The notes beneath the pieces are model-generated. The model did no database searches. It saw only the letters and a list, made by a program, of their open reading frames with translations, and was not told the DNA's origin. The position numbers were made by a program, and so were the translations under genes. A DNA stretch of 64,000 bases from Sphingomonadaceae bacterium. Its GTDB lineage: Bacteria; Chloroflexota; UBA6077. The stretch lies in the NCBI GenBank assembly GCA_050261575.1, contig JBLNDL010000005.1, positions 1 through 64,000 on the forward strand, given 5' to 3'. Positions within the stretch are counted from its first letter, which is position 1. Each line of letters starts with the position of its first letter. Below, piece by piece: positions 21,569 to 58,218 of the stretch.

Positions 21569-21634
21569 ATTAGCATCCCTTATAGATCGAATAGAATCTT
21601 CATTCTTGACGATATGTTACAGTAGGAGCATATT
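21569..21634 (+). promoter_or_regulatory. LysR-type binding site plus sigma70 promoter (Na/Pi transporter-dehydrogenase operon)
   Basis: ATTAGCATCCCTTAT-N7-ATAGAATCT-N6-TTGACG-N17-CATATT; same layout as 26499-26564. Confidence 0.8.
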
Positions 21635-21658
21635 AGCGACCTCAGTCTCCAGGGGGAG

Positions 21659-23281
21659 ATGCCTTTGGACGCCAACCTGATGCTGTTCAGCCTCTTTGGA
21701 GGGGTCTATCTCCTCCTATATGGGATCCGACTGTCTGGCGAAGGGATGCAGCGGGCGGCGGGGAACCAGTTGCGCCGGATCCTGGGCACCCTCACCCAGA
21801 AGCCGGTGGTGGGGCTGCTGGTCGGCGCCGGGGTCACTGCGGTCCTCCAGAGCAGCGGCGCCACCACGGTGATGCTGGTGAGCCTGGTGGGCGCGGGGCT
21901 AATGACTCTGCGACAGGCCATCGGCGTCATCCTGGGTGCGGACGTCGGCACCACCATCACCGTCCAGCTCATCGCCTTCAAGGTACTGGACTACGCCATC
22001 CTCCTAGTCGGACTGGGGCTGGCGATCATGTTCAGCTTCCGGCGCAGCGCCTACCGCCACCTGGGGGAGGCGATCCTCGGCTTCGGCTTCATCTTCCTGG
22101 CCATGAAGATCATGATCGACGGCATGGCTCCCCTGCGCCAAAGCCTCCTCTTCCAGGAAATCCTGCTCAATCTGGTGGACATGCCGCTCCTGACGGTTCT
22201 CGTCGCCGCGGTGCTAACGGCGCTGGTTGCCTCCAGCGCGGCGACCATCGGCCTCGCTATCACCCTGGCCCTGCAGGGCCTGATGCCGTTGCCGGTGGGG
22301 CTCGCCATCGTCCTGGGAGCCAACCTCGGCACCTGCGCCACCGCCCTGGTCTCTGCCCTGGGCACAACGCCGGAGGCCAGGCGGGTAGCCATCACCCACA
22401 CCCTCTTCAAGCTGATCGGGGTGCTGGCCCTGTTTCCCTTCCTCCCGCCGTTGACGAGTTTGACCGCCCTGACGGCGGGTGACGTGCCGCGCCAAATAGC
22501 CAACTTCCACACCCTGTTCAACGTGGCGCTCGCCGTGGTCTTCCTGCCCTTCACCGGCCCCTTCGCCAAACTGGTTACACGCCTGGTGCCAGAATCGAAG
22601 AAGGTGGGAGACCCCATGCAGCCCCGCTACCTGGACGAGAGCGTGCTGGACACCCCGGCATTGGCGCTGGGGCAGGCCACGCGGGAGACGCTGCGGATGG
22701 CGGACCTCGTGCAGGAGATGTTTCGGGATGCCATGTCGGTGTTCCGCACCAACGATTTGGCGCTGGCCGAGGAGCTGCAGGCCCGCGACGACGTGGTAGA
22801 CCGACTGGAGGAGCACATCAAGCACTACCTCACCCGGCTCACAGAGCAGGAACTCACGCCGGAGCAGTCCAAGCGCGAGGTTAGCCTGCTGTTCATGATC
22901 CAGGACCTGGAGAACATCGGTGACATCGTGGACAAGAACCTGATGGAGCTGGCCAAGAAGAAGATAGCCAGCCGGCTGGAGTTCTCCGCGGAGGGGGCCA
23001 AGGACATCGAGCATCTGACCCGCCTGGTGGCGGAGAATCTGAACCTGGCGGTGGCCGCCTACGCGACCCAGGATGCCGATCTAGCCCAGAAGCTGCTGCG
23101 GCACAAGCTGAACATAACCCGCGCAGAGCGGGAGCTGAAACAGGCCCACATCCGCCGCCTTCACGACGGTGTGAAGGAGAGCATGGACACCAGCGCCATC
23201 CACCTGGACGTGCTCTCCAATCTGGAGCGGATCAACTCCCACGCCACCAACATAGCTTTCGTCGTGTTGGGCGAGCTGTGA
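21659..23281 (+). CDS. Na+/Pi cotransporter family protein with C-terminal PhoU domains
   Basis: QSSGATT and ASSAAT repeats, GADVGTT/GANLGT, IANFHTLFN, DLENIGD, NLERINSH. Confidence 0.92.
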   Translation: MPLDANLMLFSLFGGVYLLLYGIRLSGEGMQRAAGNQLRRILGTLTQKPVVGLLVGAGVTAVLQSSGATTVMLVSLVGAGLMTLRQAIGVILGADVGTTITVQLIAFKVLDYAILLVGLGLAIMFSFRRSAYRHLGEAILGFGFIFLAMKIMIDGMAPLRQSLLFQEILLNLVDMPLLTVLVAAVLTALVASSAATIGLAITLALQGLMPLPVGLAIVLGANLGTCATALVSALGTTPEARRVAITHTLFKLIGVLALFPFLPPLTSLTALTAGDVPRQIANFHTLFNVALAVVFLPFTGPFAKLVTRLVPESKKVGDPMQPRYLDESVLDTPALALGQATRETLRMADLVQEMFRDAMSVFRTNDLALAEELQARDDVVDRLEEHIKHYLTRLTEQELTPEQSKREVSLLFMIQDLENIGDIVDKNLMELAKKKIASRLEFSAEGAKDIEHLTRLVAENLNLAVAAYATQDADLAQKLLRHKLNITRAERELKQAHIRRLHDGVKESMDTSAIHLDVLSNLERINSHATNIAFVVLGEL

Positions 23282-23298
23282 ATTGAGGAGGCTTCGCG

Positions 23299-24399
23299 TT
23301 GGGTCAAGCGCAGTTCAAGGTGGTGATCCTGGACCGGCCTAGCTGGTACGTCCCCAGCCTGGAGCAGGAGGAGCTGGGCAAGGTGGGAGCGCAGGTAGTG
23401 GTGGGATGGTCGAGTCTACCCGATGCGCCCCCCGAGGCGGCCTGGCACTATCCCACCGCCATGACTCCGGAGCAGTACAGCACCATCACCTCGGCCTTCG
23501 TTCCGGTATCCATCGGCACCGAGGAGAGGCTGATAGCCATGGCCCGGGACGCCGACGCCGTCCTGGTGATCTCGGCCAGGGTGACCGGCAGGGTGATAGA
23601 GTCGCTGCCGAGGCTGAGGGCGATCGGCCGCTACGGCATCGGCGTGGACAACGTCGACGTGGAGGCCGCCACCCGGCGAGGCATCGCCGTGGTCAACGTG
23701 CCGGGCTTCTGCGTCCGGGAGGTGGCGGACCACGTCATGATGTTGGTGCTGGCCTTCGCCCGGAAGCTGACATTCCTGCACGGACTGATGCGCCAGGGGG
23801 TCTGGGGCCGGGGGAAAGCCTCCCCCATGCCCGCCCTCTACAGCCAGACCCTCGGCTTGCTCGCCTTCGGCGAGATCAGCCGAGAGGTGGCCCTGCGAGC
23901 CAGCCCCTTCGGGCTAACCCTGCTGGCCCACGACCCCTTCGTGACCCAGGACACCGCCGACCGCTACGGCGTCACCCTGGTGAGTCTGGAAGAGCTGCTC
24001 GCTCGATCGGACTACCTCTCGGTCCACGCCCCCCTCAACGCAAAGACCAGGCACATGCTGAGCGAGGCGGAGTTCCGGCGGATGAAGCCCTCCGCCGTCG
24101 TCCTCAACACGGCGAGGGGACCGGTAGTGGACGAGGAGGCCCTGGTCAAGGCGCTCCGGGAGGGGTGGATCGCCGGAGCCGGGCTGGACGTCTACGAGGA
24201 GGAGCCTCTAGACCCCACCAGCCCCCTGCTGACGATGGAGAACGTCCTGCTTACCCCCCACACGGCCGGGCTCTCGGACGAGAGCCAGCGAGACTCCCGC
24301 AGGCGGGTATCCAGGGCGGTGGCGGAGATACTGGCGGGCCGCTGGCCGGAGGGCCGGGAGCTTTACAACCCAGTCGTCAAGGAGCGGGCCCAAGCCTAA
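23299..24399 (+). CDS. D-isomer-specific 2-hydroxyacid dehydrogenase (CtBP/SerA-like)
   Basis: RYGIGVDNVD, EVADH, NTARG, DVYEEEP, TPHTAG (Arg/Glu/His triad); variant Rossmann motif GLLAFGEI; ~30-aa N-terminal insertion. Confidence 0.9.
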   Translation: MGQAQFKVVILDRPSWYVPSLEQEELGKVGAQVVVGWSSLPDAPPEAAWHYPTAMTPEQYSTITSAFVPVSIGTEERLIAMARDADAVLVISARVTGRVIESLPRLRAIGRYGIGVDNVDVEAATRRGIAVVNVPGFCVREVADHVMMLVLAFARKLTFLHGLMRQGVWGRGKASPMPALYSQTLGLLAFGEISREVALRASPFGLTLLAHDPFVTQDTADRYGVTLVSLEELLARSDYLSVHAPLNAKTRHMLSEAEFRRMKPSAVVLNTARGPVVDEEALVKALREGWIAGAGLDVYEEEPLDPTSPLLTMENVLLTPHTAGLSDESQRDSRRRVSRAVAEILAGRWPEGRELYNPVVKERAQA

Positions 24400-24406
24400 C
24401 AGCCGC

Positions 24407-24445
24407 ATTCTGGTAGCGGGGGCGAACCTCCACCGCTACCAGAAT
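24407..24445. terminator. 13-bp hairpin, probable bidirectional terminator
   Basis: ATTCTGGTAGCGG/CCGCTACCAGAAT just after the dehydrogenase stop. Confidence 0.7.
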
Positions 24446-24454
24446 CGCCCCACC

Positions 24455-24750
24455 ATCCGCGCAGGGCGTTGGCAGCAGCCTGGGCGATATCGGTGTCAGT
24501 GCGCATCCGCTCTCCGGGCAGGCTCGCATCGATATCATTAGCTACCGCCTTCACACCTAGGACACTCTTCGCGGCTTTTTCGGCGGCGTACTTACTCTAT
24601 CGGGTAGCTCGCAACCGTGCCTGTCAAGGTCACCACCCCATCGTTGACCTCGGCTCCCACATCCGTCTGCTCCACTTCGGGGTCCCACTCGAGTTCATCC
24701 AGCACCTGCCGCTGGATCTCCTCGTCGGTCAGCAGGGTAGTTCTCGTCAC
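24455..24750 (-). pseudogene. BON-domain (OsmY-like) pseudogene, frameshifted and truncated
   Basis: TDEEIQRQVLDELEWDPEV...VNDGVVTLTGTVASYPIE* then shifted frame KYAAEKAAKSVLGVKAVANDI...RTDTDIAQAAANAL; similarity ends at the hairpin. Confidence 0.8.
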
Positions 24751-24760
24751 GGTTCTTTTC

Positions 24761-25210
24761 CTACGCTGCCTTCACCTTTATGTGGGATTCCTTTGCTGCC
24801 CCTGACATGGGCAATCGCAACCTCAGGATGCCGTTCTCGTACCTGGCCTCGGCCTTGTCCGCCTGCACCTCACTGGGAAGGGTCAACTGCCGGAAGAAGC
24901 GAGCAGTCCCCACCTCGCGGTAGTAGTAGTCCTCCTCCTTGCGCTCCTTCTCCTCCTTGCGTTCGGCACGGATGGTCAGCGTGTTGCCCGACACGCTGAT
25001 GTCCACGTCCTCAGGGCGGACGCCGGGCAGGGTGGCCTCGACAATCACATCGTTGTTCTGCCGGTACATGTTGACCGGGAAGAAGCGCATCGCCACACCC
25101 GGCCGCTCCCAGTGGCGCTCGAAGGGCTCGATGGCCTCCTCCATCATCCTCTCTAACTCGTCGGTCAGCCTTCGCATCTCGCGCATCGGCCGCCACAACT
25201 CCAAAGTCAT
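24761..25210 (-). CDS. Hsp20/alpha-crystallin small heat-shock protein
   Basis: PVNMY, LPGVRPEDVDISV, FFRQLTLP, AEARYENGILRLRLP. Confidence 0.95.
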   Translation of the reverse strand: MTLELWRPMREMRRLTDELERMMEEAIEPFERHWERPGVAMRFFPVNMYRQNNDVIVEATLPGVRPEDVDISVSGNTLTIRAERKEEKERKEEDYYYREVGTARFFRQLTLPSEVQADKAEARYENGILRLRLPMSGAAKESHIKVKAA

Positions 25211-25585
25211 GCCAATCCCCTTCCACATGTCGTTCTCGACAAACCGTCATCAGCGCCTGGTCTGCGAACGCGACGAAAGCGGTGCTTCGAGGATGCCCAG
25301 CAGCTCGGGCTGCCAGGATTCTTCAGTATCCACGCCTTCTTGCGCTCGAACCTACGTGCATGTCAAATCGCGAAGGAAAAGCGGCAAGAGCTGTACCATC
25401 GAATCTGATCTCATGCTCGTCGCCACCTCGATGAGTGGGCGCGGCTCTCGGTTGCCTCCACTCGAATGAGATGCGTCGGCCCTGTTCCGCTCCCCCTCGG
25501 ACTTGCGCTCTGTGGAATCAACATGCATGATACTGTCTGGTGTCGTATCCCAGCCACGGAACTGCTCATTCCAGGGAGGTCGACC

Positions 25586-26503
25586 ATGGCGGATCTCCGG
25601 CTGAAGGTCTTCTGCAAGGTGGCAGAGCTAGGCAGCTTCTCGAAGGCGGGGGAGGCCCTCTACCTCACCCAGCCGGGGGTGACCTTCCACATCAAGATGC
25701 TGGAGGAGGAGGTAGGCACCCCCCTCTTCGTACGACAGCGAAGCGGCATCTCCCTCACTCCCGCCGGAGAGACCCTGCTGAGGTACGGCAAGGAGATCCT
25801 CAGCCTCTACGAGCAGATGGAGCGAGAGATCCACACCCTCACCGGCACCGTGCGGGGCCACCTCTCCATCGGCGTCGCGTCGATCATGGGCCACTACTTC
25901 ATGCCCAGGATCATCGGCGCGTTCAAGAAGGGATTCCCGCAGGTCGAGTTGACCACGCATATCGGAAACAGCGGGGACCTGCTGGAATCACTGAAGAACG
26001 GCGACTTCGACCTGGCCGTCGTCGGCGGCCCCATCGAGGTGAAGGGGCTGGCGAAGGAGCTGCTCGTCCAGGATGAGCTTGTGCTCATCGTGCCCCCGGA
26101 CCACCGATGGGCTGGGCTCACTCAGGTCGAGCCAGTGGACTTGAAGAGAGAGCCCTTCATTCTGCGAGAGGAGGGCTCCAGCACCCGAGACACCCTGGCG
26201 ATCCACCTCAAGTCCAAGCGGATCAAGCTCGGTGACCTGAAGGTGGTGATGACCCTGGGCAGCACCGAGGCGATCAAGGCTGCCGTGCAGAGCGGGGTGG
26301 GGGTCTCCATCGTTTCCAACCTGGCCATCGGGAACGAATTGAGGCTCGGCCTCTTCAAGAAGGTGGGCATCAGGGGAATGCATCTGTCCAGGAGCTTCTA
26401 CATCGTGCTCCCACCAGGCAGACCGCGCCTCTCTCCAGCGGCCGACGAGTTCCTCGACTTCCTGCGCCATCACCACGCCGCCGTCCCCCATTGCGATCAT
26501 TAG
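25586..26503 (+). CDS. LysR-family regulator (CysL/CmpR-like)
   Basis: SFSKAGEALYLTQPGVTFHIKMLEEEVG HTH; LREEGSSTR, GSTEAIKAAVQSGVG. Confidence 0.95.
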   Translation: MADLRLKVFCKVAELGSFSKAGEALYLTQPGVTFHIKMLEEEVGTPLFVRQRSGISLTPAGETLLRYGKEILSLYEQMEREIHTLTGTVRGHLSIGVASIMGHYFMPRIIGAFKKGFPQVELTTHIGNSGDLLESLKNGDFDLAVVGGPIEVKGLAKELLVQDELVLIVPPDHRWAGLTQVEPVDLKREPFILREEGSSTRDTLAIHLKSKRIKLGDLKVVMTLGSTEAIKAAVQSGVGVSIVSNLAIGNELRLGLFKKVGIRGMHLSRSFYIVLPPGRPRLSPAADEFLDFLRHHHAAVPHCDH

Positions 26504-26564
26504 CATTCCTTATGCCCGGCATAGAATCTCCCATGTTGACGCTGTCGTGGCCCCAACTTAGAGT
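26499..26564 (+). promoter_or_regulatory. LysR-type binding site plus sigma70 promoter (pepM-DASS operon)
   Basis: ATTAGCATTCCTTAT-N7-ATAGAATCT-N6-TTGACG-N17-TAGAGT. Confidence 0.8.
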
Positions 26565-26611
26565 GCCTTCGCCCCCACATGTCAGTTCGACAGGGTGAAA
26601 GGTGGTTGGAT

Positions 26612-27508
26612 ATGGCGATCAACAAGGCCACTCAGCTCAGGCGTCTTCTTCACTCCGACAAGCTCGAGTTCTTGATGGAGGCCCACAACGGCCTCAGCGC
26701 CAGGATCGTGGAGGAAGCAGGCTTCGAGGGTATCTGGGCCAGCGGCCTATCGATCTCGGCGGCCATGGGCGTGCGGGACAACAACGAGGCCAGTTGGACG
26801 CAGGTGCTCGAGGTGTTGGAGTTCATGAGCGACGCCACCAACATCCCCATCCTGCTGGATGGCGACACCGGCTACGGGAACTTCAACAACGCCCGGCGTC
26901 TGGTCAAGAAGCTGGAGCAGCGGGGCATCGCGGGCGTCTGTCTGGAGGACAAGCTGTTCCCGAAGACCAACTCCTTCATCAGCGGCGAGCAGCAACCACT
27001 GGCCGACGTCGAGGAGTTCTGCGGAAAGCTGAAGGCCGCGAAGGACGCACAGGAGAACCCCGACTTCTGCGTGGTGGCCCGGACCGAGGCGTTCATCACC
27101 GGTTGGGATGCGGGCGAGGCATTGAGGCGGGCGAAGGCGTACCGACAGGCCGGCGCCGATGCCATCCTGGTCCACAGCAAGAGAACCGGCCCCGAAGACG
27201 TGGTGGCGTTCATGCGGGAGTGGGACAACCGCTGCCCAGTAGTGATAGTCCCCACCACCTACTACGGCACCCCAACCAGCCTGTTCGAGGAGATCGGCAT
27301 CAGTCTGGTGATCTGGGCCAATCACGTGCTGCGGGGAAGCATCGCGGCCATGCAGGCGACGGCTGCGCAGATCTTCCGAGAACGATCTCTCGCTGGGATC
27401 GAGCCGAAGATCGTGCCCGTCGCCGAGGTGTTCCGCCTGCAGAGGGCCGACGAGTTGAAGCAGGCGGAGAAGAAGTACCTACCGCAGGCGACCGCGTGCG
27501 CCAGATAG
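26612..27508 (+). CDS. pepM: Phosphoenolpyruvate phosphomutase
   Basis: [25 protein letters not shown], and the PepM signature EDKxxxxxNS ([10 protein letters not shown]). Confidence 0.95.
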
Positions 27509-27595
27509 GCCGCGCAGCCGCCGGATTGGCCGCCTTGCCCGGCATCCCTCTCTGTGCTAACCTGCGGCCGACTGCCTGGGAGTAACGAGTGATGA

Positions 27596-29089
27596 GTGAT
27601 GAGTAGAACAAGCGAGGCACCCGATACTCATCGCTCATCACTCATCACTGCTTACTGGAGGATCGCCCTCGCCGCCACGGTCTTCCTGGCCCTCCTGCTG
27701 ATGCCCCCCCAGCCAGGGCTGTCCACCCAGGGCCAGAGGGTGCTGGCCATCGTCGCAACAGCCGTCATCCTGTGGGCCACGGAGGCGTTGCCGGTGGCCG
27801 TCAGCTCCCTGGCGGTAGTGGTGCTGCTGAACATCACAGGCGGGGTGAGGAGCCCGTCCGAGGCGGCGGCCGGCTTCTCCTCCCCCATTCTCTACTTCCT
27901 CATCGGCTCCCAGGTGATGGGGGCGGCCGTCATGCAGTCGGGGCTGGCAGAGCGGCTGGCCACCTACCTGGTGAACCGATCCCAGGGGAGCCCCCGCAAG
28001 CTCACACTCCAGCTTCTACTTGCCCTGCCCTTCATGGCGTTCCTGATTCCGTCCGCCATCAACCGCAACACCATGCTGATCCCTGCCTACGAACAGGTCT
28101 TCCGCTCCTTGAAGGTGGGCAAGGGCGATCGACTGCCTAGGGTGATCATGCTGATCCTGGGCATCCTGAACCCCCTGGCCTCCTCCGCCTTCATGACCGG
28201 GGGGCTAGCCTCCATGACGACCTCGACCCTGCTCGGCGGCTTCACCTGGTTCGGCTGGTTCGCCCTCATGGCGGTGCCCAACTACCTGACGATGGCACTC
28301 GGCGGAGCGATGATCTACCTGCTGTACAGGCCCGACGGCGGCGAGCCACAGGGGCACTGGGACGCCGAGATGCATCCTGCGTCCCGCGTCCCGCGTCCTG
28401 GGAGTGGGGTGCCAACTCAGTACCCAGCACCAAGCGCCCGGCACTCACCACTCAATCGCGCCGAGCGCTACACCTTGCTGGTGATCGCGGCCACCTCGCT
28501 CCTGTGGCTGACCGACTTCATCCACCACTGGAACGCAGCCATCCCGGCGCTGCTTGCGGGCACGGCGTTGATGTGGCCGGGTGTAGGCGTCTTCACCTGG
28601 AAGCAGTTCGAGAAGATGGTGAGCTGGTCCAACTTCTTCTTCCTGGGCGCCTCTCTCTCGCTCACCCAGGCCCTCATCTCCACAGGCGCGGCCAACTGGT
28701 TCGCGCAGGGAACACTGGCCATTCTGGGAAACGGCATGCCCTCCGCGGTGGAACTCGCCCTCTTCGTGATCGCCGTCACATCCGTGGTGCACCTTGCGAT
28801 CCCGAACCAGTCCGCGTGCATCGCCCTGCTGATACCGGTGGTGACGGCCCTAGCCCACTCAACGCAGGTGAATCCGATGGCAACCGGACTGATCGTGGGC
28901 TTCGTCGTGGATACGGTGATCCTCTACCAGGTGCAGACGGTGACGGTCCTGATAGCCTACGAGACGGGACACTTCTCCACCAGGGACGTCTTCAGGGTGG
29001 GGCTCGGCATGCTCGCCCTCACCGTCGGGATCGTCCTGCTGGTGGCCATCCCCTGGTGGGGGCTGCTGGGCCTGGCCTTGGCCCCGTAG
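27596..29089 (+). CDS. DASS/SLC13 anion (dicarboxylate-like) transporter
   Basis: ILWATEALPVAV, SGLAERLA, IPSAINR, many TM helices, ETGHFSTRDVFRVG. Confidence 0.88.
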   Translation: MMSRTSEAPDTHRSSLITAYWRIALAATVFLALLLMPPQPGLSTQGQRVLAIVATAVILWATEALPVAVSSLAVVVLLNITGGVRSPSEAAAGFSSPILYFLIGSQVMGAAVMQSGLAERLATYLVNRSQGSPRKLTLQLLLALPFMAFLIPSAINRNTMLIPAYEQVFRSLKVGKGDRLPRVIMLILGILNPLASSAFMTGGLASMTTSTLLGGFTWFGWFALMAVPNYLTMALGGAMIYLLYRPDGGEPQGHWDAEMHPASRVPRPGSGVPTQYPAPSARHSPLNRAERYTLLVIAATSLLWLTDFIHHWNAAIPALLAGTALMWPGVGVFTWKQFEKMVSWSNFFFLGASLSLTQALISTGAANWFAQGTLAILGNGMPSAVELALFVIAVTSVVHLAIPNQSACIALLIPVVTALAHSTQVNPMATGLIVGFVVDTVILYQVQTVTVLIAYETGHFSTRDVFRVGLGMLALTVGIVLLVAIPWWGLLGLALAP

Positions 29090-29103
29090 GCCAAGGCCAG
29101 GCC
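29069..29103. terminator. Perfect 15-bp inverted repeat over the DASS stop codon, between convergent genes
   Basis: GGCCTGGCCTTGGCC-ccgta-GGCCAAGGCCAGGCC. Confidence 0.6.
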
Positions 29104-38936: not shown

Positions 38937-40097
38937 TCAGGAACGATGCACGAAACGGTCAGGGCTGAACCACCCCGCCGGAAAGTCCAAGGTCTGTCCC
39001 GTCACCCACTGGGCGATGAGCCTGCCGGTGGCCGGTGCCAGCCCGATGCCTGCTCCCTCGTGCCCCGTGGCCACGTAGAAGCCCTTCGCCCCCGATAGGG
39101 GGCCAATCAGCGGCAGATGATCCGGGCTGAAGGGGCGTAGGCCGGCGTAGTTCCGGATGGAGCGGAGCTCGCCCAGGGAGGGGAAGAAGCGCAGCGCCCG
39201 GGCGGTGATGGCCGCAGCCACCCGCAAGTTCACGCTGCGATCGAACCCCACCAACTCGCGGCTGCTCCCGAGCAGCAACGTCCCGCCCCTCGTGGATTCG
39301 GCCACCGTCGCCACCTGGAGGCCCGCGGAGTCGCTCTCCACCGCCGAGGTGTAGCCGGCCTCCATCAGCTTGCGCCTGAAGAGGTAGGGCGCCCTCTCCA
39401 CGACGACGATCTGCCCCTTTCGGGGGTAGACGGGGACGTCCAGTCCAGCGGTCGCGGCGACTTCGCGAGTCCACACCCCAGCCGCCACCACCACGGCGCC
39501 CGTGGGGATCCGCTCCCGATCCGTCTCCACGGCCTCAACCCGGCCGTCCGGACCGAGCGCCACCCGGCGAACGGCCGCATCCTGCCGGACCACCAGGCCG
39601 TGGCGTCGCCCACTATCTATCAAGGCGGTAGTGGCGATCCTGGGCTCCACCTGGGCGTCCTCGGGGAAAAGGGCGCCCCCGGCTAGGTCGTCAGCGAGTG
39701 CGGGCTCCTCGGCGTGAAGCTGCCGCGGGTCGAGCATCTCGCCCGCCACCCCCGCCGCAGACAGATCGCTGAGCTTGCGGCTCACGGCGGCGAGGGCGGC
39801 CTCGTCCTCAGCCAGCATGATGCTGCCCTTGGGATCGTACTCGAAGTCGATCCCGAGCTCCCCAGCCAGTTCCCGCCACAGTTGGAGGCTGCGCTGGGCG
39901 AGGGGGAGTTCCCTCTCCAGCTCCTTGTCCCACAGCAGGAGGTTCCCCTCGCAGGCGCCCGAGCTGCCCGAGGCGAGAAAGGAGCGCTCCAGCAGAAGAA
40001 CGGAAAGCCCCTCCCGGGCAAGGTAGTAGCCGCAGGCGGCGCCGATGATGCCGCCGCCGACCACCACCACGTCGGCATTCCTGGTGGGACAGATCAC
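38937..40097 (-). CDS. FAD-dependent D-amino-acid/D-hydroxyproline dehydrogenase catalytic subunit
   Basis: VVGGGIIG, PRKGQ, AGLRPFSPDHLPLIG, TGHEGAGIGLAPATG. Confidence 0.85.
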   Translation of the reverse strand: MICPTRNADVVVVGGGIIGAACGYYLAREGLSVLLLERSFLASGSSGACEGNLLLWDKELERELPLAQRSLQLWRELAGELGIDFEYDPKGSIMLAEDEAALAAVSRKLSDLSAAGVAGEMLDPRQLHAEEPALADDLAGGALFPEDAQVEPRIATTALIDSGRRHGLVVRQDAAVRRVALGPDGRVEAVETDRERIPTGAVVVAAGVWTREVAATAGLDVPVYPRKGQIVVVERAPYLFRRKLMEAGYTSAVESDSAGLQVATVAESTRGGTLLLGSSRELVGFDRSVNLRVAAAITARALRFFPSLGELRSIRNYAGLRPFSPDHLPLIGPLSGAKGFYVATGHEGAGIGLAPATGRLIAQWVTGQTLDFPAGWFSPDRFVHRS

Positions 40098-40378
40098 CCA
40101 TTACCTCTTCAACGGCCTTGCAACGTAGGGCAGGGCCTCGTGTCCTGCCGCACGCCCCCTCTGCTGCGACGACGGGGGCTTGGGCGCATCCGATCGGCCA
40201 GACAGCGGGGCACACGTGACGCGAGCGGGCACGCGAGGCGAGCGAGCCCAGCCTCGCGGCCACGCCCGTCCTACAGGCGTCGCATTTGCGGAACGGCGCA
40301 CTTGGTCGTCGCTGCCGCGGGCCAGCAGCGTGGCGCGAGCGGGCGCAGCGTCAGAGGCAGCCCCTACGACGCATCGCG

Positions 40379-41308
40379 TCAGTAGCACCTGGGTGGGTTG
40401 GGCGCCTTGGACCATCGATCCATCGCGCCGACGTTCACCAGCAGCTTCCTTAGTTCCTCGACCTTCTCCAGAGACAGAGGGCGGTAGGGAGGCCGCGGGT
40501 CCCCCACGTGGAAGCCGATCAGGTTGGCCCCGGCTTTGACGCTCGCGGCGTACCCCTCGGTCACCAGGAAGTGGTTCACCGGCCACATCTTGGCCCACAG
40601 GTCCCTGGCCTCGTTGATCTGGCCGGCGTCGATCAGGTCGAACAGTTGCGCGCACTGCTTGGGCATCACGTTGGCCGCCCCCCACACGGCCCCCTTGCTC
40701 CCCAGGGCCAGGACCGAGAAGGTGATGGTGTCCCAGCCGTTGAAGACGGTCACCTCGTTGCTGTACCTGTAGAGCAGCTCCGAGACCTGGGAGAGGTTGC
40801 CGCTGGAATCCTTGATGTACCGCACGTTCTCGATCTCTCGGGCCAGCCGGATCCAGAAGTCGGTGGGGGGGTTCATACCCGTGCCAGCCGGATTGTTGTA
40901 CACCATCATCGGGATGCGGATGGCGTCGGAGATCTCCTTGAAGTAGTCGAACAGCTCCTGCAGGCTGGTGGGCTCGTAGTAGGGCTGGACCACCATGACG
41001 GCATCGGCACCGATGCTCTCGGCGTGCTTGGAGAGCATCACCGCATCGGTGGTGCTGCACGCCCCCGTGTGCGGAACCACGGGAACTCGGCCACGGGCCT
41101 GGTCGACCACGATCTCGGCGACCCGCATCCGCTCCTCTCTAGTGAGCACCGGGAACTCACCCGTGCTGCCACAGGGGATGAGTCCGTGGATGCCGGCGGC
41201 GATGGTGCCTTCTACCAACTCGCGCAGGCCGGCCTCGTCGATCTTGACACCACCTGGGGTGAACGGGGTGGCCAGGGCGGAAAGGATGCCGCGAAGGGGA
41301 CGAACCAT
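40379..41308 (-). CDS. DHDPS-family lyase (candidate pyrroline-4-hydroxy-2-carboxylate deaminase)
   Basis: CGSTGEF, MVYNNP, YIKDSSG Schiff-base Lys; hydroxyproline-cluster context. Confidence 0.8.
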   Translation of the reverse strand: MVRPLRGILSALATPFTPGGVKIDEAGLRELVEGTIAAGIHGLIPCGSTGEFPVLTREERMRVAEIVVDQARGRVPVVPHTGACSTTDAVMLSKHAESIGADAVMVVQPYYEPTSLQELFDYFKEISDAIRIPMMVYNNPAGTGMNPPTDFWIRLAREIENVRYIKDSSGNLSQVSELLYRYSNEVTVFNGWDTITFSVLALGSKGAVWGAANVMPKQCAQLFDLIDAGQINEARDLWAKMWPVNHFLVTEGYAASVKAGANLIGFHVGDPRPPYRPLSLEKVEELRKLLVNVGAMDRWSKAPNPPRCY

Positions 41309-41410
41309 CGGAAGACCTCCTCTTCTGGCTACTGCACGGCGGAACCCTTAGGCGCGATCGCCGGAATCTCGACTGCTTACAGGCCACCGGGAATCCATCA
41401 CGATGAGGCC

Positions 41411-41440
41411 AGTGTAGGCAGCCGCCCAAACCACTGTCAA
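41411..41440 (-). promoter_or_regulatory. Internal sigma70 promoter
   Basis: TTGACA-N18-TACACT on the minus strand upstream of the DHDPS-like gene. Confidence 0.55.
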
Positions 41441-41470
41441 CGGTGCGGACAGACCACCCCACACCTGCCT

Positions 41471-41740
41471 TCACCGCAGATACTCCCAACAGCGGCACAC
41501 GGCGGCGTAGTCGCCGCAGAGCGGGCACTGCTCGATCGCGCAGTCCCGATGGTGGTAGCCCCCCACCACCACACCGCAATCGTCGCAGCGCCCCTCGTAC
41601 TCGTACCAGGTGCGAGCCCGGCGCTCCTCGCCGTAGCGGATGCGGGGCACGGGCCGTCCGGCCAGATCGAAGTGCTCCCGTGTGCAGGTCGTCGTGGCCT
41701 CCTGAGGCACGTCGCTGCCGCAATCTGGGCAGGTGGCCAT
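41471..41740 (-). CDS. Small Cys/His-rich putative zinc-binding protein (89 aa)
   Basis: CPDC...C...CDDCG...YHHRDC...CPLCG...CRC; RBS GGGAG; 11 bp after the upstream stop. Confidence 0.7.
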   Translation of the reverse strand: MATCPDCGSDVPQEATTTCTREHFDLAGRPVPRIRYGEERRARTWYEYEGRCDDCGVVVGGYHHRDCAIEQCPLCGDYAAVCRCWEYLR

Positions 41741-41750
41741 GCGGTACTCC

Positions 41751-42818
41751 CTACTCGACGTTCGTCCCCCAGATGTCCCCCACGGTGAAGCCCTCCGCAA
41801 AGGGGTCCTCGGCGTCCACCACGTACTGGGTGATGGCGTAGATCCACGCCTGCCCCGTGATGGTCGGGACCACCGCGGGGTACTGGCCCACCCGGGTCTC
41901 CTCGACCAGCCGCCCAGTGAAGGTGGTGCCGAGGATCCCCTCGTGGACGAAGTCCTGGTGCAGCCCCAGCATGCCGCGAGCGTAGAGGGTCGCCATCTTG
42001 GCGCAGGTGCCGGTGCCGCAGGGCGACCGGTCCAGGATGCCCGTCCAGGAGTCGGGCCGGTTCCAGTCCAGCTCGCCGCTTGAGACCACCACCGTGTTCT
42101 TCATCGAAGCGCCGGGCCTGGTTGCCGGGGCCGAGAACTCGGCAATGGTCACGCCCGCGATGCCCGGGTTCTCCGGGTGGACCACCGGAAGCTGCTCCCG
42201 AGTTGCAGCCTTGATCATCTCCCCCAGCCGCACGATGTCCTTCCCCTCGTCCGGGGTGATCCGCAACCCCACCTGCGCGGCATCGACGATGACGTAGAAC
42301 ATCCCGCCGTAGGCCACGTCCACGGTGACCGTCCCCAGGTTGGGGACCTCCACCTTGGCGTCCAGGTAGGCGGCGAAGGCAGGCACGTTCCGGAAGGTGA
42401 CGCTCCTCACCTTGCCGTTGGCGCACTCGGCCCGGATCCGCACCAACCCCGCCGGAGCCTCCAGGGTGAACTCCGTCACCGGCTCCTTCATGGGAATCAT
42501 GCCGGTCTCCAGCAGCACCGTGGCGGTGCACAGGGTGTTGCTGCCCGACATCGGAGGGTACTCCACCTGCTCCATGATGACGAAGCCGGCATCGGCCTCC
42601 GGGTGGGTGGGGGCAAGTACCAGGTTGCAGCAGAGGGCGGGGTAGCCCCGAGGCTCGCGCAGCATCAGCTTCCGCAGGCCGTCGTGGTGTGTCCGCAGGT
42701 AGACCATCTTCTCGAACATGGTGTTGCCGGGAACGTCGAGCACACCCCCGACGATGACCCGCCCTGGCTCCCCAGCGGCGTGGGCATCGACAGCAGTGAT
42801 CATATTCCTGAGTCGCAC
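41751..42818 (-). CDS. Proline racemase family, Ser/Cys type
   Basis: HAAGEP, EPRG, YPPMSGSN, DRSPCGTGT. Confidence 0.88.
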   Translation of the reverse strand: MRLRNMITAVDAHAAGEPGRVIVGGVLDVPGNTMFEKMVYLRTHHDGLRKLMLREPRGYPALCCNLVLAPTHPEADAGFVIMEQVEYPPMSGSNTLCTATVLLETGMIPMKEPVTEFTLEAPAGLVRIRAECANGKVRSVTFRNVPAFAAYLDAKVEVPNLGTVTVDVAYGGMFYVIVDAAQVGLRITPDEGKDIVRLGEMIKAATREQLPVVHPENPGIAGVTIAEFSAPATRPGASMKNTVVVSSGELDWNRPDSWTGILDRSPCGTGTCAKMATLYARGMLGLHQDFVHEGILGTTFTGRLVEETRVGQYPAVVPTITGQAWIYAITQYVVDAEDPFAEGFTVGDIWGTNVE

Positions 42819-42991
42819 AGAAGCCTCCTATCAGAGTCCTGGGTCCTCAGCGCTCAGCGCCCTGAGCGCCTAACACGACCTATGTGGGGGCAGATCCATG
42901 ATGTGCCTGCCCTCCGTGCGGAAAAGGCCACACGGGCGGACCTGCGTGCCCGCCCCTACCGGTATTGTCGGGGTCTCTTGGGGCACAGGAC

Positions 42992-44389
42992 TCAAAACTG
43001 GGCGCCCAGCACACGCAGTGGCACCGGCTTGATGGGCGGCCTCGGGGTGGTCTGCAGCAGCTCCTTCAGGGGTCGACCGGTCTCCTGCGCCAAGAGGTGG
43101 GCGATCAGGTTAGCGCAGATCCGCCCCTGGCAGGGCCCCATCCCCACGCGGGTCCACATCTTCAGCGCCCTTAGGCTGTCGGCACCGCGGCGGATCGCCG
43201 CCCGAACCTCCCCCACGGTCACCTCCTCGCATCGGCAGAGGGGGGTATCTGGCTCAGCCAACTGGTAGATGCCCGGGCGTGGCGCGAAGAGATCGTTCAG
43301 CATCTCGGCGAAGCCCAACTGGTGGCGCCGCCGCGCCCTGGCCGCCTCCATCTCCCGCTGCAGCTCCGAGTTGAGCGGATGCCCGAGCAGCCGAGCCGCG
43401 GCCAGGCCCGCGATCTCCCCCTCCGCCAGCGCCAACTCCGCGCCCCCGACGCCCGTGGTCTCCCCGGCGACGAACACGCCGGGGACGCTGCTCTCCATAT
43501 CGGGGCCGTGGACCGGCAGGTACTGCTGCTGGGCCGGATGGTAGCGCATCCGGCAGCCGAGCAGGGCAGGCAGCTCGGTGGAGGAGAGGAAGCCGTAGCC
43601 GATGCAGAGCAGGTCCACATCGAAGACCTTCTCACTCCGCGTCACCGGTCGCCACAGGCTGTCCACGGCAGCGACGATCACCCGCTGGACCGATTCCTCC
43701 CCCTCGGCTCGCACCACGACGTGGCCGAAGTAGCGGGGAAGCCGGGCTGCCAGTAGGGCCCGCTCGTGGACGATGGCGTCCCTCATCCGGTCCCAGTGGC
43801 CCCACATCCGGTGGGCCCTGAGGGCCCACTCCTGCCGAGTGGTCGCCTCCACCACCCCGACGACCGTCGCGCCGGCCTCCACCAACCCCTTCGACAGCGG
43901 CAGCAGCAGGGGGCCTGCGCCGGCCACCAGCACCCGCCGCCCGGGGAGGACGTGCTGACCCTTCAGCATCGCCTGAGCGCCCCCGGCGGACCAGACCCCC
44001 GGAAGGGTCCAGCCGGGGAAGGCGACGGGACGATCGTAGGCGCCGGTGGCCACCACGATCGCCTCGGCTCGCAGCGTCTCCGCATCCCCTCCCTCACGGT
44101 AGAGGAGTATGGTTCGGCCATCCTCGACTCCCCACACCAGGGTCCCCGTCCGAAGCTCCACCGGAGCCACCGCCAACTGCCCGAGCAGCTTCTGTGAACG
44201 GGCCTGCGCCGCCGGTGAGGCGAACCAGCCTCCGCCCTCGAACCCCTCCGGGGGCTGCCGGAAGAACTGCCCGCCGGGGCGGGGATACTCGTCTATCAGC
44301 GTGACCGCAGCCCCTGCCCGGCTCGCGGCGAGCGCGGCGGCGATGCCGGCGGGGCCGGCCCCCACGACAGCCACCTCAGTCCGCGGCAC
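42992..44389 (-). CDS. FAD/NAD(P) oxidoreductase with BFD-like domain (alpha subunit of hydroxyproline/opine-type dehydrogenase)
   Basis: VGAGPAG, ATGAYDR..FPGWTLPGV, CRCEEV, GMGPCQGRIC, RPPIKPV. Confidence 0.9.
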   Translation of the reverse strand: MPRTEVAVVGAGPAGIAAALAASRAGAAVTLIDEYPRPGGQFFRQPPEGFEGGGWFASPAAQARSQKLLGQLAVAPVELRTGTLVWGVEDGRTILLYREGGDAETLRAEAIVVATGAYDRPVAFPGWTLPGVWSAGGAQAMLKGQHVLPGRRVLVAGAGPLLLPLSKGLVEAGATVVGVVEATTRQEWALRAHRMWGHWDRMRDAIVHERALLAARLPRYFGHVVVRAEGEESVQRVIVAAVDSLWRPVTRSEKVFDVDLLCIGYGFLSSTELPALLGCRMRYHPAQQQYLPVHGPDMESSVPGVFVAGETTGVGGAELALAEGEIAGLAAARLLGHPLNSELQREMEAARARRRHQLGFAEMLNDLFAPRPGIYQLAEPDTPLCRCEEVTVGEVRAAIRRGADSLRALKMWTRVGMGPCQGRICANLIAHLLAQETGRPLKELLQTTPRPPIKPVPLRVLGAQF

Positions 44390-44702
44390 GGCCGCCACCC
44401 CTTTCGTCGCCAGGAAGACCACCCAGGCTCACCCGCATACCCGGCCGGACCGGGACGACGCAACTGCGCACCTGCCCCATCCCCTCGACTGTGACCGTGC
44501 ACTCGAAGCATGCCCCGATCCCGCAGAACACGCCCCGCGGCGCCCCCGTGCGAGGGGCGTGGCGGAACACCCGGCGCCCGGCCGCCGTGAGCGCAGCGGC
44601 GATGGTCTCGCCGGCATAGGCCGGCACCACCTCGCCGTCCACTATCAAGTCGATGAGTTCACCCCGCCGCACGCGTGGATCGCGCGCGGGCACCTCAGCC
44701 AT
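44376..44702 (-). CDS. 2Fe-2S subunit (gamma subunit)
   Basis: GETIAAAL, RGVFCGIGACFECTV, RSC. Confidence 0.9.
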   Translation of the reverse strand: MAEVPARDPRVRRGELIDLIVDGEVVPAYAGETIAAALTAAGRRVFRHAPRTGAPRGVFCGIGACFECTVTVEGMGQVRSCVVPVRPGMRVSLGGLPGDERGGGRAAD

Positions 44703-53907: not shown

Positions 53908-54122
53908 ATCCTCGCGGTCGCGCCCGTCCTCCACCATCGAATCCGCGGATCGACGCACTCCGATAGTGCTGTCAGTAGGGCGTCAAGTTCCGCGCTCCTC
54001 AAGACTGCACGAATCCCGTCTATTGAGCAAGAACTTCCGTATCCTGCCCCCGGAGCATCTGCTACCATTTGGCTACCTCTCGCTCCCACAGCGAGCTCAG
54101 TTCGTTTGCCCCGGAGGCAGCT

Positions 54123-55511
54123 ATGCTACCGGCCCAGGTCTGGGACGCCGCGCTGGGCGAACTCCAGCTTCAGATGACGAAGGCCAACTTCGACACCTGG
54201 TTGAAGGACACCTTCGTCGCTTCGCAGGAAGACGGGGTCTTCGTCATCGGTGTCGGCAGCCCCTTCGCCGCCGACACCCTCGAGCAGCGGCTCTCCCCGA
54301 TGATCCGCAAGGTGCTCGCCGGCATCCTGGGCCATCACGTGGACCTCCGCTTCGTCGTCCAGCAGAAGAAGCCCCGGGGGAGAGCGCAGAAGGGGATAGA
54401 CGCGCCGCTGGAGGCCGCTCCTCGCAACGGCCGCAACGGCTCGGCAAGGAACGGAGCAGGCAAGGTGGAGAGCCCCCACTTCGACTCCGCGCTGAACCCT
54501 CGCTACACCTTCAGCAGCTTCGTGGTGGGCAAGAGCAACCAGCTAGCCCACGCCGCTTGCCAGGCCGTCGCCGACGACCCCGGTCGCGCCTACAACCCCC
54601 TCTTCCTGTACGGCGGCGTCGGCCTCGGCAAGACCCACCTGATGCACGCCATCGGCCACGAGACGCTCGAGCGCGGCCTGCGCGTGCTGTACGTCACCTC
54701 CGAAACCTTCACCAACGAGTTGATCAACTCCATTCGGGAACATCGGACGGAGGAGTTCCGCAACAAGTACCGGAGGGTCCAGGTTCTCCTGATCGACGAC
54801 ATCCAGTTCATCGCCGGCAAGGAGAGCACCCAGGAGGAGTTCTTCCACACCTTCAACGCCATCCACGAGAGCGGGGGACAGATCATCATCTCCAGCGACC
54901 GCCCCCCGAAGGCGATCTCCACCCTGGAGGACCGGCTGCGCTCGCGCTTCGAATGGGGGCTGATCGCCGACATCCAGCCTCCCGATCTGGAGACTAGGAT
55001 CGCCATCCTCCGCTCCAAGTGCCAGTGCCTGGGGATCACGGTCCCCGAAGAGGTGCTGGAGGCCATCGCGCGGAAGATGCAGAGCAACATCCGAGAGTTG
55101 GAGGGCTCGCTCAACCGGATCGTCGCCATGGCCGCCGTCACCGGGGAACCGATCACCATCCAACTCGCCGCCGCCGCGTTGAACGACGTGATGTTCAACA
55201 TCTCCCGCCGCTTCGTGAAGCCCGAGACGATCGTTGCCGCCGTGGCGCAGTTCTACCACGTAAGCGAGGATGAGTTGCGGGGCAAGCAGCGGGACAGGCG
55301 GGTGGTGCTTCCCAGGCAGGTGGCGATGTACCTGCTGCGGGAGGAGACGGAGCTGCCGCTCGTTGAGATCGGCAACCTGCTGGGTGGCCGCGATCACACC
55401 ACCGTGCTCCACAGTGTGGAGAAGGTGGCCGCCGAGCTGAACAACGGCGGAGCCCTCGTGAAGGACATCAACGCCCTGCGGGAGAGCATCTACTCCGTCT
55501 CCACGGTCTGA
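54123..55511 (+). CDS. dnaA: Chromosomal replication initiator DnaA
   Basis: YNPLFLYGGVGLGKTHL, IDDIQF, QEEFFHTFN, RLRSRFEWG, NIRELEG, RDHTTVLH. Confidence 0.98.
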   Translation: MLPAQVWDAALGELQLQMTKANFDTWLKDTFVASQEDGVFVIGVGSPFAADTLEQRLSPMIRKVLAGILGHHVDLRFVVQQKKPRGRAQKGIDAPLEAAPRNGRNGSARNGAGKVESPHFDSALNPRYTFSSFVVGKSNQLAHAACQAVADDPGRAYNPLFLYGGVGLGKTHLMHAIGHETLERGLRVLYVTSETFTNELINSIREHRTEEFRNKYRRVQVLLIDDIQFIAGKESTQEEFFHTFNAIHESGGQIIISSDRPPKAISTLEDRLRSRFEWGLIADIQPPDLETRIAILRSKCQCLGITVPEEVLEAIARKMQSNIRELEGSLNRIVAMAAVTGEPITIQLAAAALNDVMFNISRRFVKPETIVAAVAQFYHVSEDELRGKQRDRRVVLPRQVAMYLLREETELPLVEIGNLLGGRDHTTVLHSVEKVAAELNNGGALVKDINALRESIYSVSTV

Positions 55512-56684: not shown

Positions 56685-58148
56685 ATGATGCGCATCCGCA
56701 AGAAGACCTTGGACAAGGCGACGGAGAACGCCATCACCCAGGCGGCTGCCGCCGGTATCCCCCTCCCCTTCGACCGCTACGAGGACCAGGTGCCCGTGTG
56801 CCGCTTCGGCCAGATGGGGCTCGACTGCAAGGCATGCACCCAGGGCCCCTGCCGGGTCAACCCCTTCGACGCCACCAACGGGACCGCTTGCGGCCGTGAC
56901 CGCGAGGGCATCGTCTCCGCCAGCTTCCTGCGCCTCGTTGCCGATGGTGCGGTAGCCAACTCCTCCTTCGCGGGCACCCAGGCGAAGGTCGCCGGCGCCG
57001 TGTTCGACGGTATCGCCGCCGCCAACGAGGGGATGCTGTCATCGGCCGACCTGCTCCGGAAAGCGATCGACGTGGCGGACGCGAGCTTCGGCGCCCTGGC
57101 GCACAGAGCCAACGGCGCGGTCAAGACGATCCAGGTGGGTATTGGGACCCTGAACCCCGACAAGATCAACATCCTCCTGCTGGGCAACATCCCAGCGGGG
57201 CAGGCGGGCAAGATCGCCAAGGCTCTTGGCTCCAACGCCAAGGTCAATCTGGTCGGCGCGGTGGGCGGCGAGGCGGCAGGCCTGCCGGTCGCGGGCAACT
57301 ACAACAGCCAGGAGGCGCTCCTGGTGACCACCGCCGTCGACGGCGTTGTCGTCGGCAAGGCATGCGTCTCCCCCGGCTTCCTGGCGCTGGCAGCCAAGCA
57401 GGGCGTGCCGGTGGTGGAGGCCGACAAGTTCGACGCCGCCGGCCTGCTGGATAAGGCCGAGACCCACTACCGCCAGAACGCCGGCCGCAGCATCGCCGCG
57501 AGGTTCGCCCGCGTCGCGGCCACAGTGGGCTTCGCTGCCTCCACCTTCGCCTCCCTCTCCGCCCAGCAATGGGGCGAGCTGGCCAAGTCGGGCATCAAGG
57601 GAGTGGCGATCGTGGGCGGCTGCAACAACGCCATCGAGACCCAGGACGCCGCCATCGTCCGCCAGGCCGATGAGTTTCTGAAGAACGACGTGCTGGTGAT
57701 CGCCAGCGGCTGCGCCGCGGTGGGCCTGGCCAAGGCCGGCTACATGGATCCGGCCAAGGTGGGCTCCCTCGCCGGCAAGGGGCTGCAGGCGTTCCTGGCC
57801 GCCCTGTCCGGCGCCACCGGCACCCAGCTCCCCGCGGTCCTCGAGGCCGGTAGCTGTTGGGAGCTGCCGACGGCTGTGGAGTTGGCCCAACTGTTCCAGA
57901 AGCGACTGAAGTTGCCCCTGGCTGCCGCGATGCCGGAGCTATCCAGGCCCGCCGCGTGGAGTTCGGCTCTCGCCGTCGCCGCGCAGGGTGTCCCCACCTA
58001 CGTGGGGCCGGTGCTCCCCCTCGACGGCGGCCTCCAGACAGTTCAGGCTCTCAACGATATGCTGAAGGCCAGGGGCGGATCCATCGTGGGCCCTGGCCAG
58101 ATCGGCGATCCCGAAGCCTTCGTGAACTCGGTGATAGGTAACGAGTGA
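56685..58148 (+). CDS. Shortened, degenerate Ni-CO dehydrogenase (CooS) homolog
   Basis: CRFGQMGLDCKACTQGPCRV...CG, GGCNN, SGC, GSC motifs; several active-site residues lost; 487 aa. Confidence 0.85.
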   Translation: MMRIRKKTLDKATENAITQAAAAGIPLPFDRYEDQVPVCRFGQMGLDCKACTQGPCRVNPFDATNGTACGRDREGIVSASFLRLVADGAVANSSFAGTQAKVAGAVFDGIAAANEGMLSSADLLRKAIDVADASFGALAHRANGAVKTIQVGIGTLNPDKINILLLGNIPAGQAGKIAKALGSNAKVNLVGAVGGEAAGLPVAGNYNSQEALLVTTAVDGVVVGKACVSPGFLALAAKQGVPVVEADKFDAAGLLDKAETHYRQNAGRSIAARFARVAATVGFAASTFASLSAQQWGELAKSGIKGVAIVGGCNNAIETQDAAIVRQADEFLKNDVLVIASGCAAVGLAKAGYMDPAKVGSLAGKGLQAFLAALSGATGTQLPAVLEAGSCWELPTAVELAQLFQKRLKLPLAAAMPELSRPAAWSSALAVAAQGVPTYVGPVLPLDGGLQTVQALNDMLKARGGSIVGPGQIGDPEAFVNSVIGNE

Positions 58149-58218
58149 TGAGTCGTGAGTGGATAGCCACTCATCTCTCGCAACTCATCACTCATTACTG
58201 GTTAAGGAGATAGCCGAG

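Follow-up and report, generated by a model that had tools for sequence, protein, structure and literature searches.

The window analysed here, a stretch of 64,000 nucleotides (bases 1-64000 of contig C5), belongs to a genome of 3.72 Mb in 103 contigs (completeness 100%, contamination 4.76%), and at 21.6-29.1 kb it carries the gene for a phosphoenolpyruvate mutase (PepM) together with genes for a LysR-type regulator, a 2-hydroxyacid dehydrogenase (HADH), and two transport proteins, one of the DASS family and one of a Na/Pi-PhoU type. We propose, with a probability of roughly 0.5, that these genes and a tripartite tricarboxylate transporter (TTT) on another contig would serve the LysR-induced uptake of phosphonolactate, its oxidation to phosphonopyruvate, and the isomerization of phosphonopyruvate by PepM to phosphoenolpyruvate (PEP). 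The genes are identifiable by family, the genome holds no other recognised phosphonate genes, one box stands at three of its promoters, and both the importer (TctCBA) and the LysR are orthologous to members of a PepM-linked operon found elsewhere. From the sequences we infer the substrate, the direction of flux, and the roles of the DASS carrier and of the Na/Pi-PhoU protein, the latter in the export of phosphate (Pi). The genes and sites concerned are the following.

21569-21599, plus strand: Box 1, ATTAGCATCCCTTAT-N7-ATAGAATCT, 5′ of the Na/Pi-PhoU gene; the element runs to 21634, with -35-like TTGACG and -10-like CATATT
21659-23281, plus strand: Na/Pi-cotransporter-related protein with two C-terminal PhoU domains (540 aa; PF02690, PF01895)
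23299-24399, plus strand: D-isomer-specific 2-hydroxyacid dehydrogenase, HADH (366 aa; PF02826, PF00389)
24761-25228, minus strand: HSP20 small heat-shock protein (PF00011), between the operons, its membership in the system not shown
25466-26503, plus strand: LysR-type regulator (HTH_1 and LysR_substrate), reading frame open from 25466, likely start 25586
26499-26529, plus strand: Box 2, ATTAGCATTCCTTAT-N7-ATAGAATCT, 5′ of pepM; the element runs to 26564, with -35-like TTGACG and -10-like TAGAGT
26579-27508, plus strand: PepM (TIGR02320), likely start 26612
27581-27656, no strand assigned: palindrome like a repetitive extragenic palindrome (REP), with GAGTGAT repeats and a 19-bp stem, between pepM and the DASS gene
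27596-29089, plus strand: DASS-family anion carrier (PF00939), start uncertain
G000:C86:10178-13207 (contig C86 of this genome): tctC-tctB-tctA (PF03401, PF07331, PF01970), with a box site 220 bp ahead

In the proposed route, a three-carbon phosphonate, most likely phosphonolactate (2-hydroxy-3-phosphonopropanoate), would be imported by TctCBA and possibly also by the DASS carrier, an NAD-dependent 2-hydroxyacid dehydrogenase would convert it to phosphonopyruvate, and PepM, working in its thermodynamically favoured direction, would turn phosphonopyruvate into PEP, the C-P bond being removed without hydrolysis and the phosphoryl group being kept in high-energy form. The phosphoglycerate dehydrogenase family, to which the best solved relative of HADH belongs, physiologically oxidizes a 2-hydroxy acid bearing a distal phosphoryl group. 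The equilibrium of PepM is given as more than 500-fold toward PEP (10.64898/2026.01.15.699783). With a carbon source whose C:P ratio is 3:1, the growing cell would be flooded with phosphate, and a Pi-exporting Na/Pi-PhoU protein would have a role in disposing of the surplus. The protein in the window scores 250.3 bits with TIGR00704 (cut-off 210.1), presumably the YjbB type, and is an accessory paralogue; contig C57 carries another copy, 53% identical. Na/Pi-PhoU proteins of the YjbB type are cited as Pi exporters (PMC7980370).

What ties these genes together is the box at their promoters. Box 1 and Box 2 share the pattern ATTAGCATnCCTTAT-N7-ATAGAATCT, 31 nt with 23 specified bases, and with up to 4 substitutions allowed there are exactly two such sites in 3.72 Mb, at 21569 and 26499; the view taken in the first-pass annotation of this DNA, that the two operons form one regulon, is favoured by this common LysR-type box and promoter, and position 21569, the first base of the feature as delimited there, is the exact first base of Box 1. 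A promoter scan gave a matching hexamer-set pair upstream of the Na/Pi gene and of pepM. Box 2 overlaps the end of the LysR gene, starting just ahead of the stop codon at 26501-26503. When the query was the core CTTAT-N7-ATAGAAT with at most 1 substitution, one extra site was found in the genome, at C86 9936-9955 before tctCBA, and this site continues identically, as AATCTCC..TTGACG-N17-TAGAGT. The usual form of a LysR-type site is a T-N11-A dyad, and at all three promoters such a dyad, TAT-N7-ATA, lies inside the box just upstream of the -35-like hexamer. Across the three promoters the half-sites and the promoter hexamers are kept and the spacers vary, which argues for selection on a binding site and not for recent duplication.

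The box is missing from the orthologous Na/Pi promoter of the relative G002 and from the orthologous tctC promoters of the relatives G001 to G004, despite the 88% identity of the G001 TctC; conservation of the tctC leader with G001 covers its proximal 150 bp and stops short of the box region. Nor does a box lie upstream of the LysR gene, where there is instead a different palindrome, TCA-N7-TGA. The LysR has the expected domains (PF00126, the N-terminal HTH_1, 74.4 bits; PF03466, substrate-binding, 175.9 bits), its likely start at 25586 is preceded by a GGGAGG ribosome-binding site, and it falls under the cut-off of TIGR03339 (phn_lysR, aminoethylphosphonate catabolism; 177.1 vs 341.1). It passes NF040786 (265.8 vs 250), the model for a "selenium metabolism-associated LysR." No ortholog of it was found in the family (40% identity at most). 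Set against the relatives compared, this genome alone has the box, the LysR, and PepM. The LysR probably binds the box, and resident transporter genes were probably recruited into a PepM regulon.

The window PepM scores 389.9 bits with the PepM equivalog model TIGR02320 (cut-off 319.55) and aligns over residues 13-303 with the Mytilus PepM structure 1M1B (E 1e-136, 457.7 bits); its 10-residue EDKxxxxxNS stretch, which we take to be the PepM active-site motif, is identical to the aligned stretch of 1M1B. The rival to be met at this point is a PalA-like phosphonopyruvate hydrolase (PPH), which would yield pyruvate and phosphate. PepM and PPH share about 41% identity, one change in the active site is believed to set them apart (PMC3266647), and there is a Pi-handling protein within the regulon, and yet we find a hydrolase hardly credible here: the hydrolase model TIGR02321 gives 229.6 bits, under its cut-off of 374.4, the PPH structure aligns at 214.5 bits, and the residue that discriminates mutase from hydrolase is Asn (KTNS) in the window PepM, as against Thr (KDTS) in PPH 2DUA. 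By these comparisons the enzyme is a true PepM and not a hydrolase, as had been called from the letters alone.

Partners of a different kind for PepM were sought and are absent. The module, as first described, contains no decarboxylase, aminotransferase, nucleotidyltransferase, or tailoring gene, and the search of the whole genome for phosphonopyruvate decarboxylase (Ppd) gave 0 matches over the cut-off of TIGR03297. Thirty-seven pepM-adjacent Ppd sequences used as queries matched strongly only the two halves of a split thiamin diphosphate (ThDP) decarboxylase on C57 (109 and 69 bits), with a third, weaker match on C96 (50 bits). As a Ppd partner for pepM this best candidate was rejected: its halves score 146.8 and 67.9 bits with TIGR03297, under the cut-off, and it is conserved in relatives without pepM (78% in G004, 74% in G003). 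Since it is kept in 32 of the 39 genomes of the order (order-level tallies count the unpublished genome G023) and a PepM-like gene is found in just 2 of the 39, the decarboxylase does not follow pepM. The two-subunit ThDP decarboxylase at G000:C57:72175-73193 is under the model cut-offs for both sulfopyruvate and phosphonopyruvate decarboxylase. No PhnJ was found in the genome, and neither PhnX nor PhnW had a genome match over its cut-off.

The link of PepM to uptake is seen again outside this genome. We examined PepM loci from the best 80 of 230 genome relatives and the best 80 of 254 metagenome relatives of the window PepM (61-76% identity). Two metagenome contigs from this set, L168 and L176, carry a PepM 67-68% identical to that of the window and no Ppd. 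On L168, a LysR gene is divergent from genes for a dehydrogenase (NAD_binding_2 and DUF1932), PepM, and TctC, where the contig ends; on L176, an NAD_binding_2/DUF1932 dehydrogenase gene is followed by those for PepM, TctC, TctB, and TctA, the last three being consecutive, as they are on C86. The TctC of this genome is the reciprocal best hit of those of L168/L176 at 54-63% identity (paralogues, 34-37.5%), its TctA is the reciprocal best hit of those of the PepM-linked TctCBA contigs at 69% (paralogues, 48-52%), and the window LysR and the L168 LysR are reciprocal best hits at 43%. A box search on L168 and L176 found none. A further case is L070, a metagenome-assembled genome (MAG) of the Paenibacillaceae, in which PepM and a DUF1932-type dehydrogenase, 53-59% identical to that of L168/L176, lie in the same-strand cluster given here in two parts.

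L070 469-13891 (with L228), part 1: GFO-type oxidoreductase, sulfatase, ROK protein, binding protein (ATP-binding cassette type), TIM-barrel protein, CBM96 protein
L070 469-13891, part 2: second binding protein (ATP-binding cassette type), PepM, unknown protein, second sulfatase-family protein, DUF1932-type dehydrogenase

This cluster resembles a sugar-utilization locus and may be one that degrades a phosphonate-decorated glycan. Hence a PepM with an NAD-type hydroxyacid dehydrogenase (of two unrelated families) and uptake components, without Ppd, recurs. The recurrence of the window's gene set expected in the first-pass annotation is thus found for the PepM-uptake link (L168/L176 and L070) but not for its DASS and Na/Pi components, and the same five-gene layout was not found in the best 160 loci, from which rarer layouts may escape. 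The wider proposition, that PEP mutase can act as a catabolic C-P-removing enzyme in LysR-controlled, importer-linked pepM sets here and in at least 2 other lineages, is one that we put forward tentatively, at slightly less than even odds.

The importer deserves some attention. An account of TTT systems treats them as serving uptake, in one case that of sulfolactate, which corresponds to phosphonolactate with a sulfonate group; neither "export" nor "efflux" is used in its accessible text (PMC5812351). The neighbors of the G003 TctC gene, whose product is 63.5% identical to the TctC of L176, encode a GntR regulator, an HMGL-like enzyme, and a further 2-hydroxyacid dehydrogenase, and the ancestral TctC ligand may have been a malate-like acid. 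That region, G003:C8:904-10283, has two tctCBA sets around the GntR/FCD regulator, HMGL-like (homocitrate-synthase-like), and 2-hydroxyacid dehydrogenase genes, and its first TctC is the ortholog of the box-controlled C86 TctC.

The phylogeny of PepM is less helpful. Trees were made with FastTree on 160 rows (L164 was dropped for an internal stop) and with a quick IQ-TREE run on 70 hand-picked rows. Of the 43 rows in which PepM is linked to a dehydrogenase upstream, 42 fall in a single clade, which does not include the window PepM. Approximately unbiased (AU) tests did not reject placing the window PepM with either the TctCBA-linked or the dehydrogenase-linked clade (p 0.78 and 0.83); since the constrained trees outscored the free quick search, that search was a poor one. 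Several other PepM neighborhoods emerged in passing. On L156, L174, L187, and L032 (metagenome or MAG), a lone PepM gene, with neither Ppd nor dehydrogenase, is divergent beside selA (L-seryl-tRNA selenium transferase), and the selA-adjacent PepMs make up a well-supported clade of 7. In the Nitrospirales MAGs L026, L028, and L031, whose PepMs form a clade with 100% support, there is no Ppd near PepM, and an aldo/keto reductase gene lies about 0.7 kb downstream. In a plasmid collection, 103 records have PepM, and the four inspected (H15, H18, H20, and H21) are biosynthetic, with PepM accompanied by Ppd or by transaminase, cytidylyltransferase, and CDP-alcohol transferase; the L168 dehydrogenase had no match in that collection at E 1e-40.

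Within the window, the five genes (Na/Pi-PhoU, HADH, LysR, PepM, and DASS) are all present as first annotated. HADH begins 18 bp past the Na/Pi-PhoU stop, and the LysR gene lies immediately 5′ of pepM in the same direction. It does stand between two operons, as had been stated, but the minus-strand HSP20 gene between HADH and LysR was overlooked. PepM and DASS are adjacent, but the co-transcription claimed for them is not established: the 88-bp gap contains the 19-bp-stem hairpin and the block CTGTGCTAACCTGC, which G003 and G004 also have upstream of their DASS genes. The carrier itself scores 146.6 bits with PF00939, well over the cut-off of 27, is under the cut-off of TIGR00785 (148.9 vs 198.6), and shows conservation with the G004 ortholog from residue 35 onward. 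As for the hairpin, it belongs to a REP-like family of long intergenic hairpins built from inverted GAGTGAT heptamers, with 64 arm matches genome-wide (up to 3 substitutions) and is not present upstream of the G004 DASS ortholog. It was rejected as a terminator for pepM, for it has no U-tract and is a member of a genome-wide repeat, and the pattern scan called no terminator. Further members of the family are found at 58143-58200 of the window and at roughly 30 more sites in the genome.

A number of observations weigh against the catabolic route as we have drawn it, and they concern the transporters, the dehydrogenase, and the company that PepM keeps. The DASS orthologs are 65-73% identical (66% in G004) and syntenic in G003 and G004, neither of which has pepM, and the conserved CTGTGCTAACCTGC block suggests that DASS may keep a promoter of its own. 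Likewise, an 85% identical ortholog of Na/Pi-PhoU lies at the same locus in G002 without pepM, and TctC has orthologs of 52-88% identity in relatives that also lack pepM, which means that these three transport systems work without PepM. The idea of DASS as a dedicated phosphonolactate carrier is weakened on these grounds, TctCBA being better tied to PepM. By its gene content the locus is a mosaic, and the case for a five-gene module of dedicated function is the weaker for it. As for HADH, it is 30-41% identical to the pepM-adjacent dehydrogenases, and when 15 of these were used as queries, 6 other dehydrogenase loci of the genome outranked it; its one 67% ortholog, in G004, is beside MttB-family and TRAP/TctC genes. 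On these comparisons it has no specific kinship with the VlpB-like, pepM-adjacent dehydrogenases, and its reading as a phosphonopyruvate reductase of the VlpB type is not supported. Among the best 160 PepM loci, 90 have Ppd within 4 kb and 43 have a 2-hydroxyacid dehydrogenase directly upstream, both of which are biosynthetic layouts; 27 have neither, many of these being on short contigs; and none of the 160 has DASS or Na/Pi near PepM. The L168 and L176 dehydrogenases are 91-93% identical to each other, so these two contigs count as only one independent lineage. Finally, the TctCBA-linked PepMs fall with the SelA-adjacent PepMs in a clade of 11, and the window PepM, on a long branch, is outside it in both trees.

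With these points in mind, three further explanations have to be considered. The most probable of them is a minimal biosynthesis, in which PepM would convert PEP to phosphonopyruvate, HADH would pull it on to phosphonolactate for export (by DASS, for example), and Na/Pi-PhoU would supply phosphate. Phosphonate biosynthesis has an accepted early branch in which a dehydrogenase does the pulling (PMC8942020; 10.64898/2026.01.15.699783), the 43 loci with such a gene immediately 5′ of pepM fit it, and the best solved relative of HADH is a phosphoglycerate dehydrogenase (the short enzyme 1WWK, 243 bits). HADH itself is under every NCBIfam equivalog cut-off. The difficulty is that this regulon includes a binding-protein-dependent importer, TctCBA, whose genes on L168 and L176 come directly after pepM, and that no activation, transfer, or tailoring gene is present. 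Moreover, HADH is neither adjacent to pepM, being 2.2 kb away in a separate operon, nor of the pepM-adjacent type, and a LysR with its box on three transporter and enzyme promoters suits substrate induction better. With HADH unlike the pepM-adjacent type, and with the window PepM outside both clades and the AU tests rejecting neither, we regard biosynthesis as an unlikely account, to be kept in view.

It is also conceivable that PepM is catabolic but that the substrate is another, such as phosphonopyruvate itself, phosphonoalanine (by way of a housekeeping transaminase), or a larger conjugate, with HADH having its role elsewhere. The ortholog of HADH in a non-phosphonate context, the different dehydrogenase family in L168, L176, and L070, and the sulfatase-family hydrolases and sugar-type binding proteins of L070, which hint at a conjugate, all lend themselves to this. 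We think it improbable, since an NAD-type hydroxyacid dehydrogenase, from one or other of two unrelated families, accompanies PepM in all three lineages (this genome, L168/L176, and L070), which looks like one required oxidation step filled twice, and no transaminase is found in any of their clusters. Slightly less probable still is the most deflationary account, that a horizontally acquired LysR-pepM pair has landed in a variable locus among unrelated neighbors, leaving PepM an orphan without local partners. PepM is indeed rare (1 of 5 family genomes, 2 of 39 in the order, and 2 of 401 sampled in the phylum, the other PepM-like gene of the order being just 38% identical to that of the window); the flanking GT4 glycosyltransferase gene, the small minus-strand gene, and the Na/Pi and DASS genes are syntenic with relatives that have no pepM; and the opposite-strand HSP20 gene splits the module. 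However, the box and promoter are found at exactly the pepM and Na/Pi-HADH promoters, with a third before a TctCBA that is pepM-linked elsewhere, and 23 specified bases occurring twice within 5 kb are not a matter of chance. Phosphonolactate uptake followed by oxidation and isomerization to PEP is the reading that we prefer.

The surroundings of the locus can be described briefly. Upstream of the Na/Pi gene are the GT4 gene and the small minus-strand gene, which has a weak GerE match, and beyond the DASS gene is a chemotaxis receptor gene on the minus strand. G003 and G004, without pepM, have in order the GT4 gene, the small minus-strand gene, and DASS; in G002, Na/Pi-PhoU stands where DASS does in those two. 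Elsewhere in the window, dnaA is at 54069-55511, where the cumulative GC skew has no sign change at the resolution used, and the minus-strand set at 38937-44422, consisting of an FAD oxidoreductase (DAO), a proline-racemase-family gene, and a sarcosine-oxidase-alpha-like pyridine nucleotide-disulphide oxidoreductase, looks like one for hydroxyproline or D-amino-acid catabolism.

If the proposal is correct, the route to PEP would add one more means of C-P bond removal; it would conserve energy and be sensible where a phosphonate serves as a carbon source. C-P lyase, the hydrolases PhnX, PhnA, and PalA, and the PhnY*/PhnZ pathway are the catabolic routes set out in the accessible parts of two reviews (PMC3266647 among them), where PepM figures only as the entry to biosynthesis. 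Each of these routes is known to end in free phosphate or a hydrocarbon. In the portions available of the 2012 and 2023 phosphonate-degradation reviews, neither phosphonolactate catabolism nor a catabolic PepM is described, and the stem "phosphonolact" is absent from that of 2023; a literature search, with subscription-only papers and supplements outside its coverage, likewise returned neither. The proposal would also provide compounds of the phosphonolactate type with a fate; genes for making them are common, to judge from the 43 dehydrogenase-linked loci. There is a practical side as well, in that pepM is the standard marker of phosphonate producers, and a class of consumers would therefore bias pepM surveys: some of the genomes counted as producers would be consumers. 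Three proteins and one substrate would suffice to test the system directly.

Comparison with known systems shows where the arrangement would fit. In the uncharacterised arrangement of L168/L176, all the genes are in one operon and the dehydrogenase is of the NAD_binding_2/DUF1932 type, unlike HADH; those short contigs show neither DASS nor Na/Pi-PhoU. Valinophos biosynthesis uses the same two enzyme families, VlpA (PepM) and VlpB (2-hydroxyacid dehydrogenase), and the same metabolites, phosphonopyruvate and phosphonolactate, with VlpB proposed to reduce the former to the latter (PMC8942020). The direction proposed here is the opposite one; HADH is not pepM-adjacent, and in place of vlpCDE-like genes, of which there are none, there are uptake transporters and a LysR. 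In sulfolactate catabolism, the SlcHFG system of Roseovarius nubinhibens and Chromohalobacter salexigens is likewise a TTT that takes up a 3-substituted lactate analogue, a sulfonate there as against a phosphonate here (PMC5812351). The nearest characterised system is the phosphonoalanine degradation cluster of Variovorax sp. Pal2, with its PalB transaminase, PalA hydrolase, transporter genes, and LysR, which is similarly LysR-linked and similarly brings a C3 phosphonate to phosphonopyruvate. In the sulfolactate route, the substrate, once taken up, is oxidized to the 2-oxo acid, which is then decarboxylated or transaminated and not isomerized. In contrast to Pal2, the genes here are spread over three promoters, of which one is on a different contig, a dehydrogenase replaces the transaminase, and with a true mutase the product would be PEP and not pyruvate and Pi. 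LysR-linked, substrate-specific phosphonate catabolism is thus already known, and we rate the PEP-ending arrangement of dehydrogenase and PepM as a variant of it.

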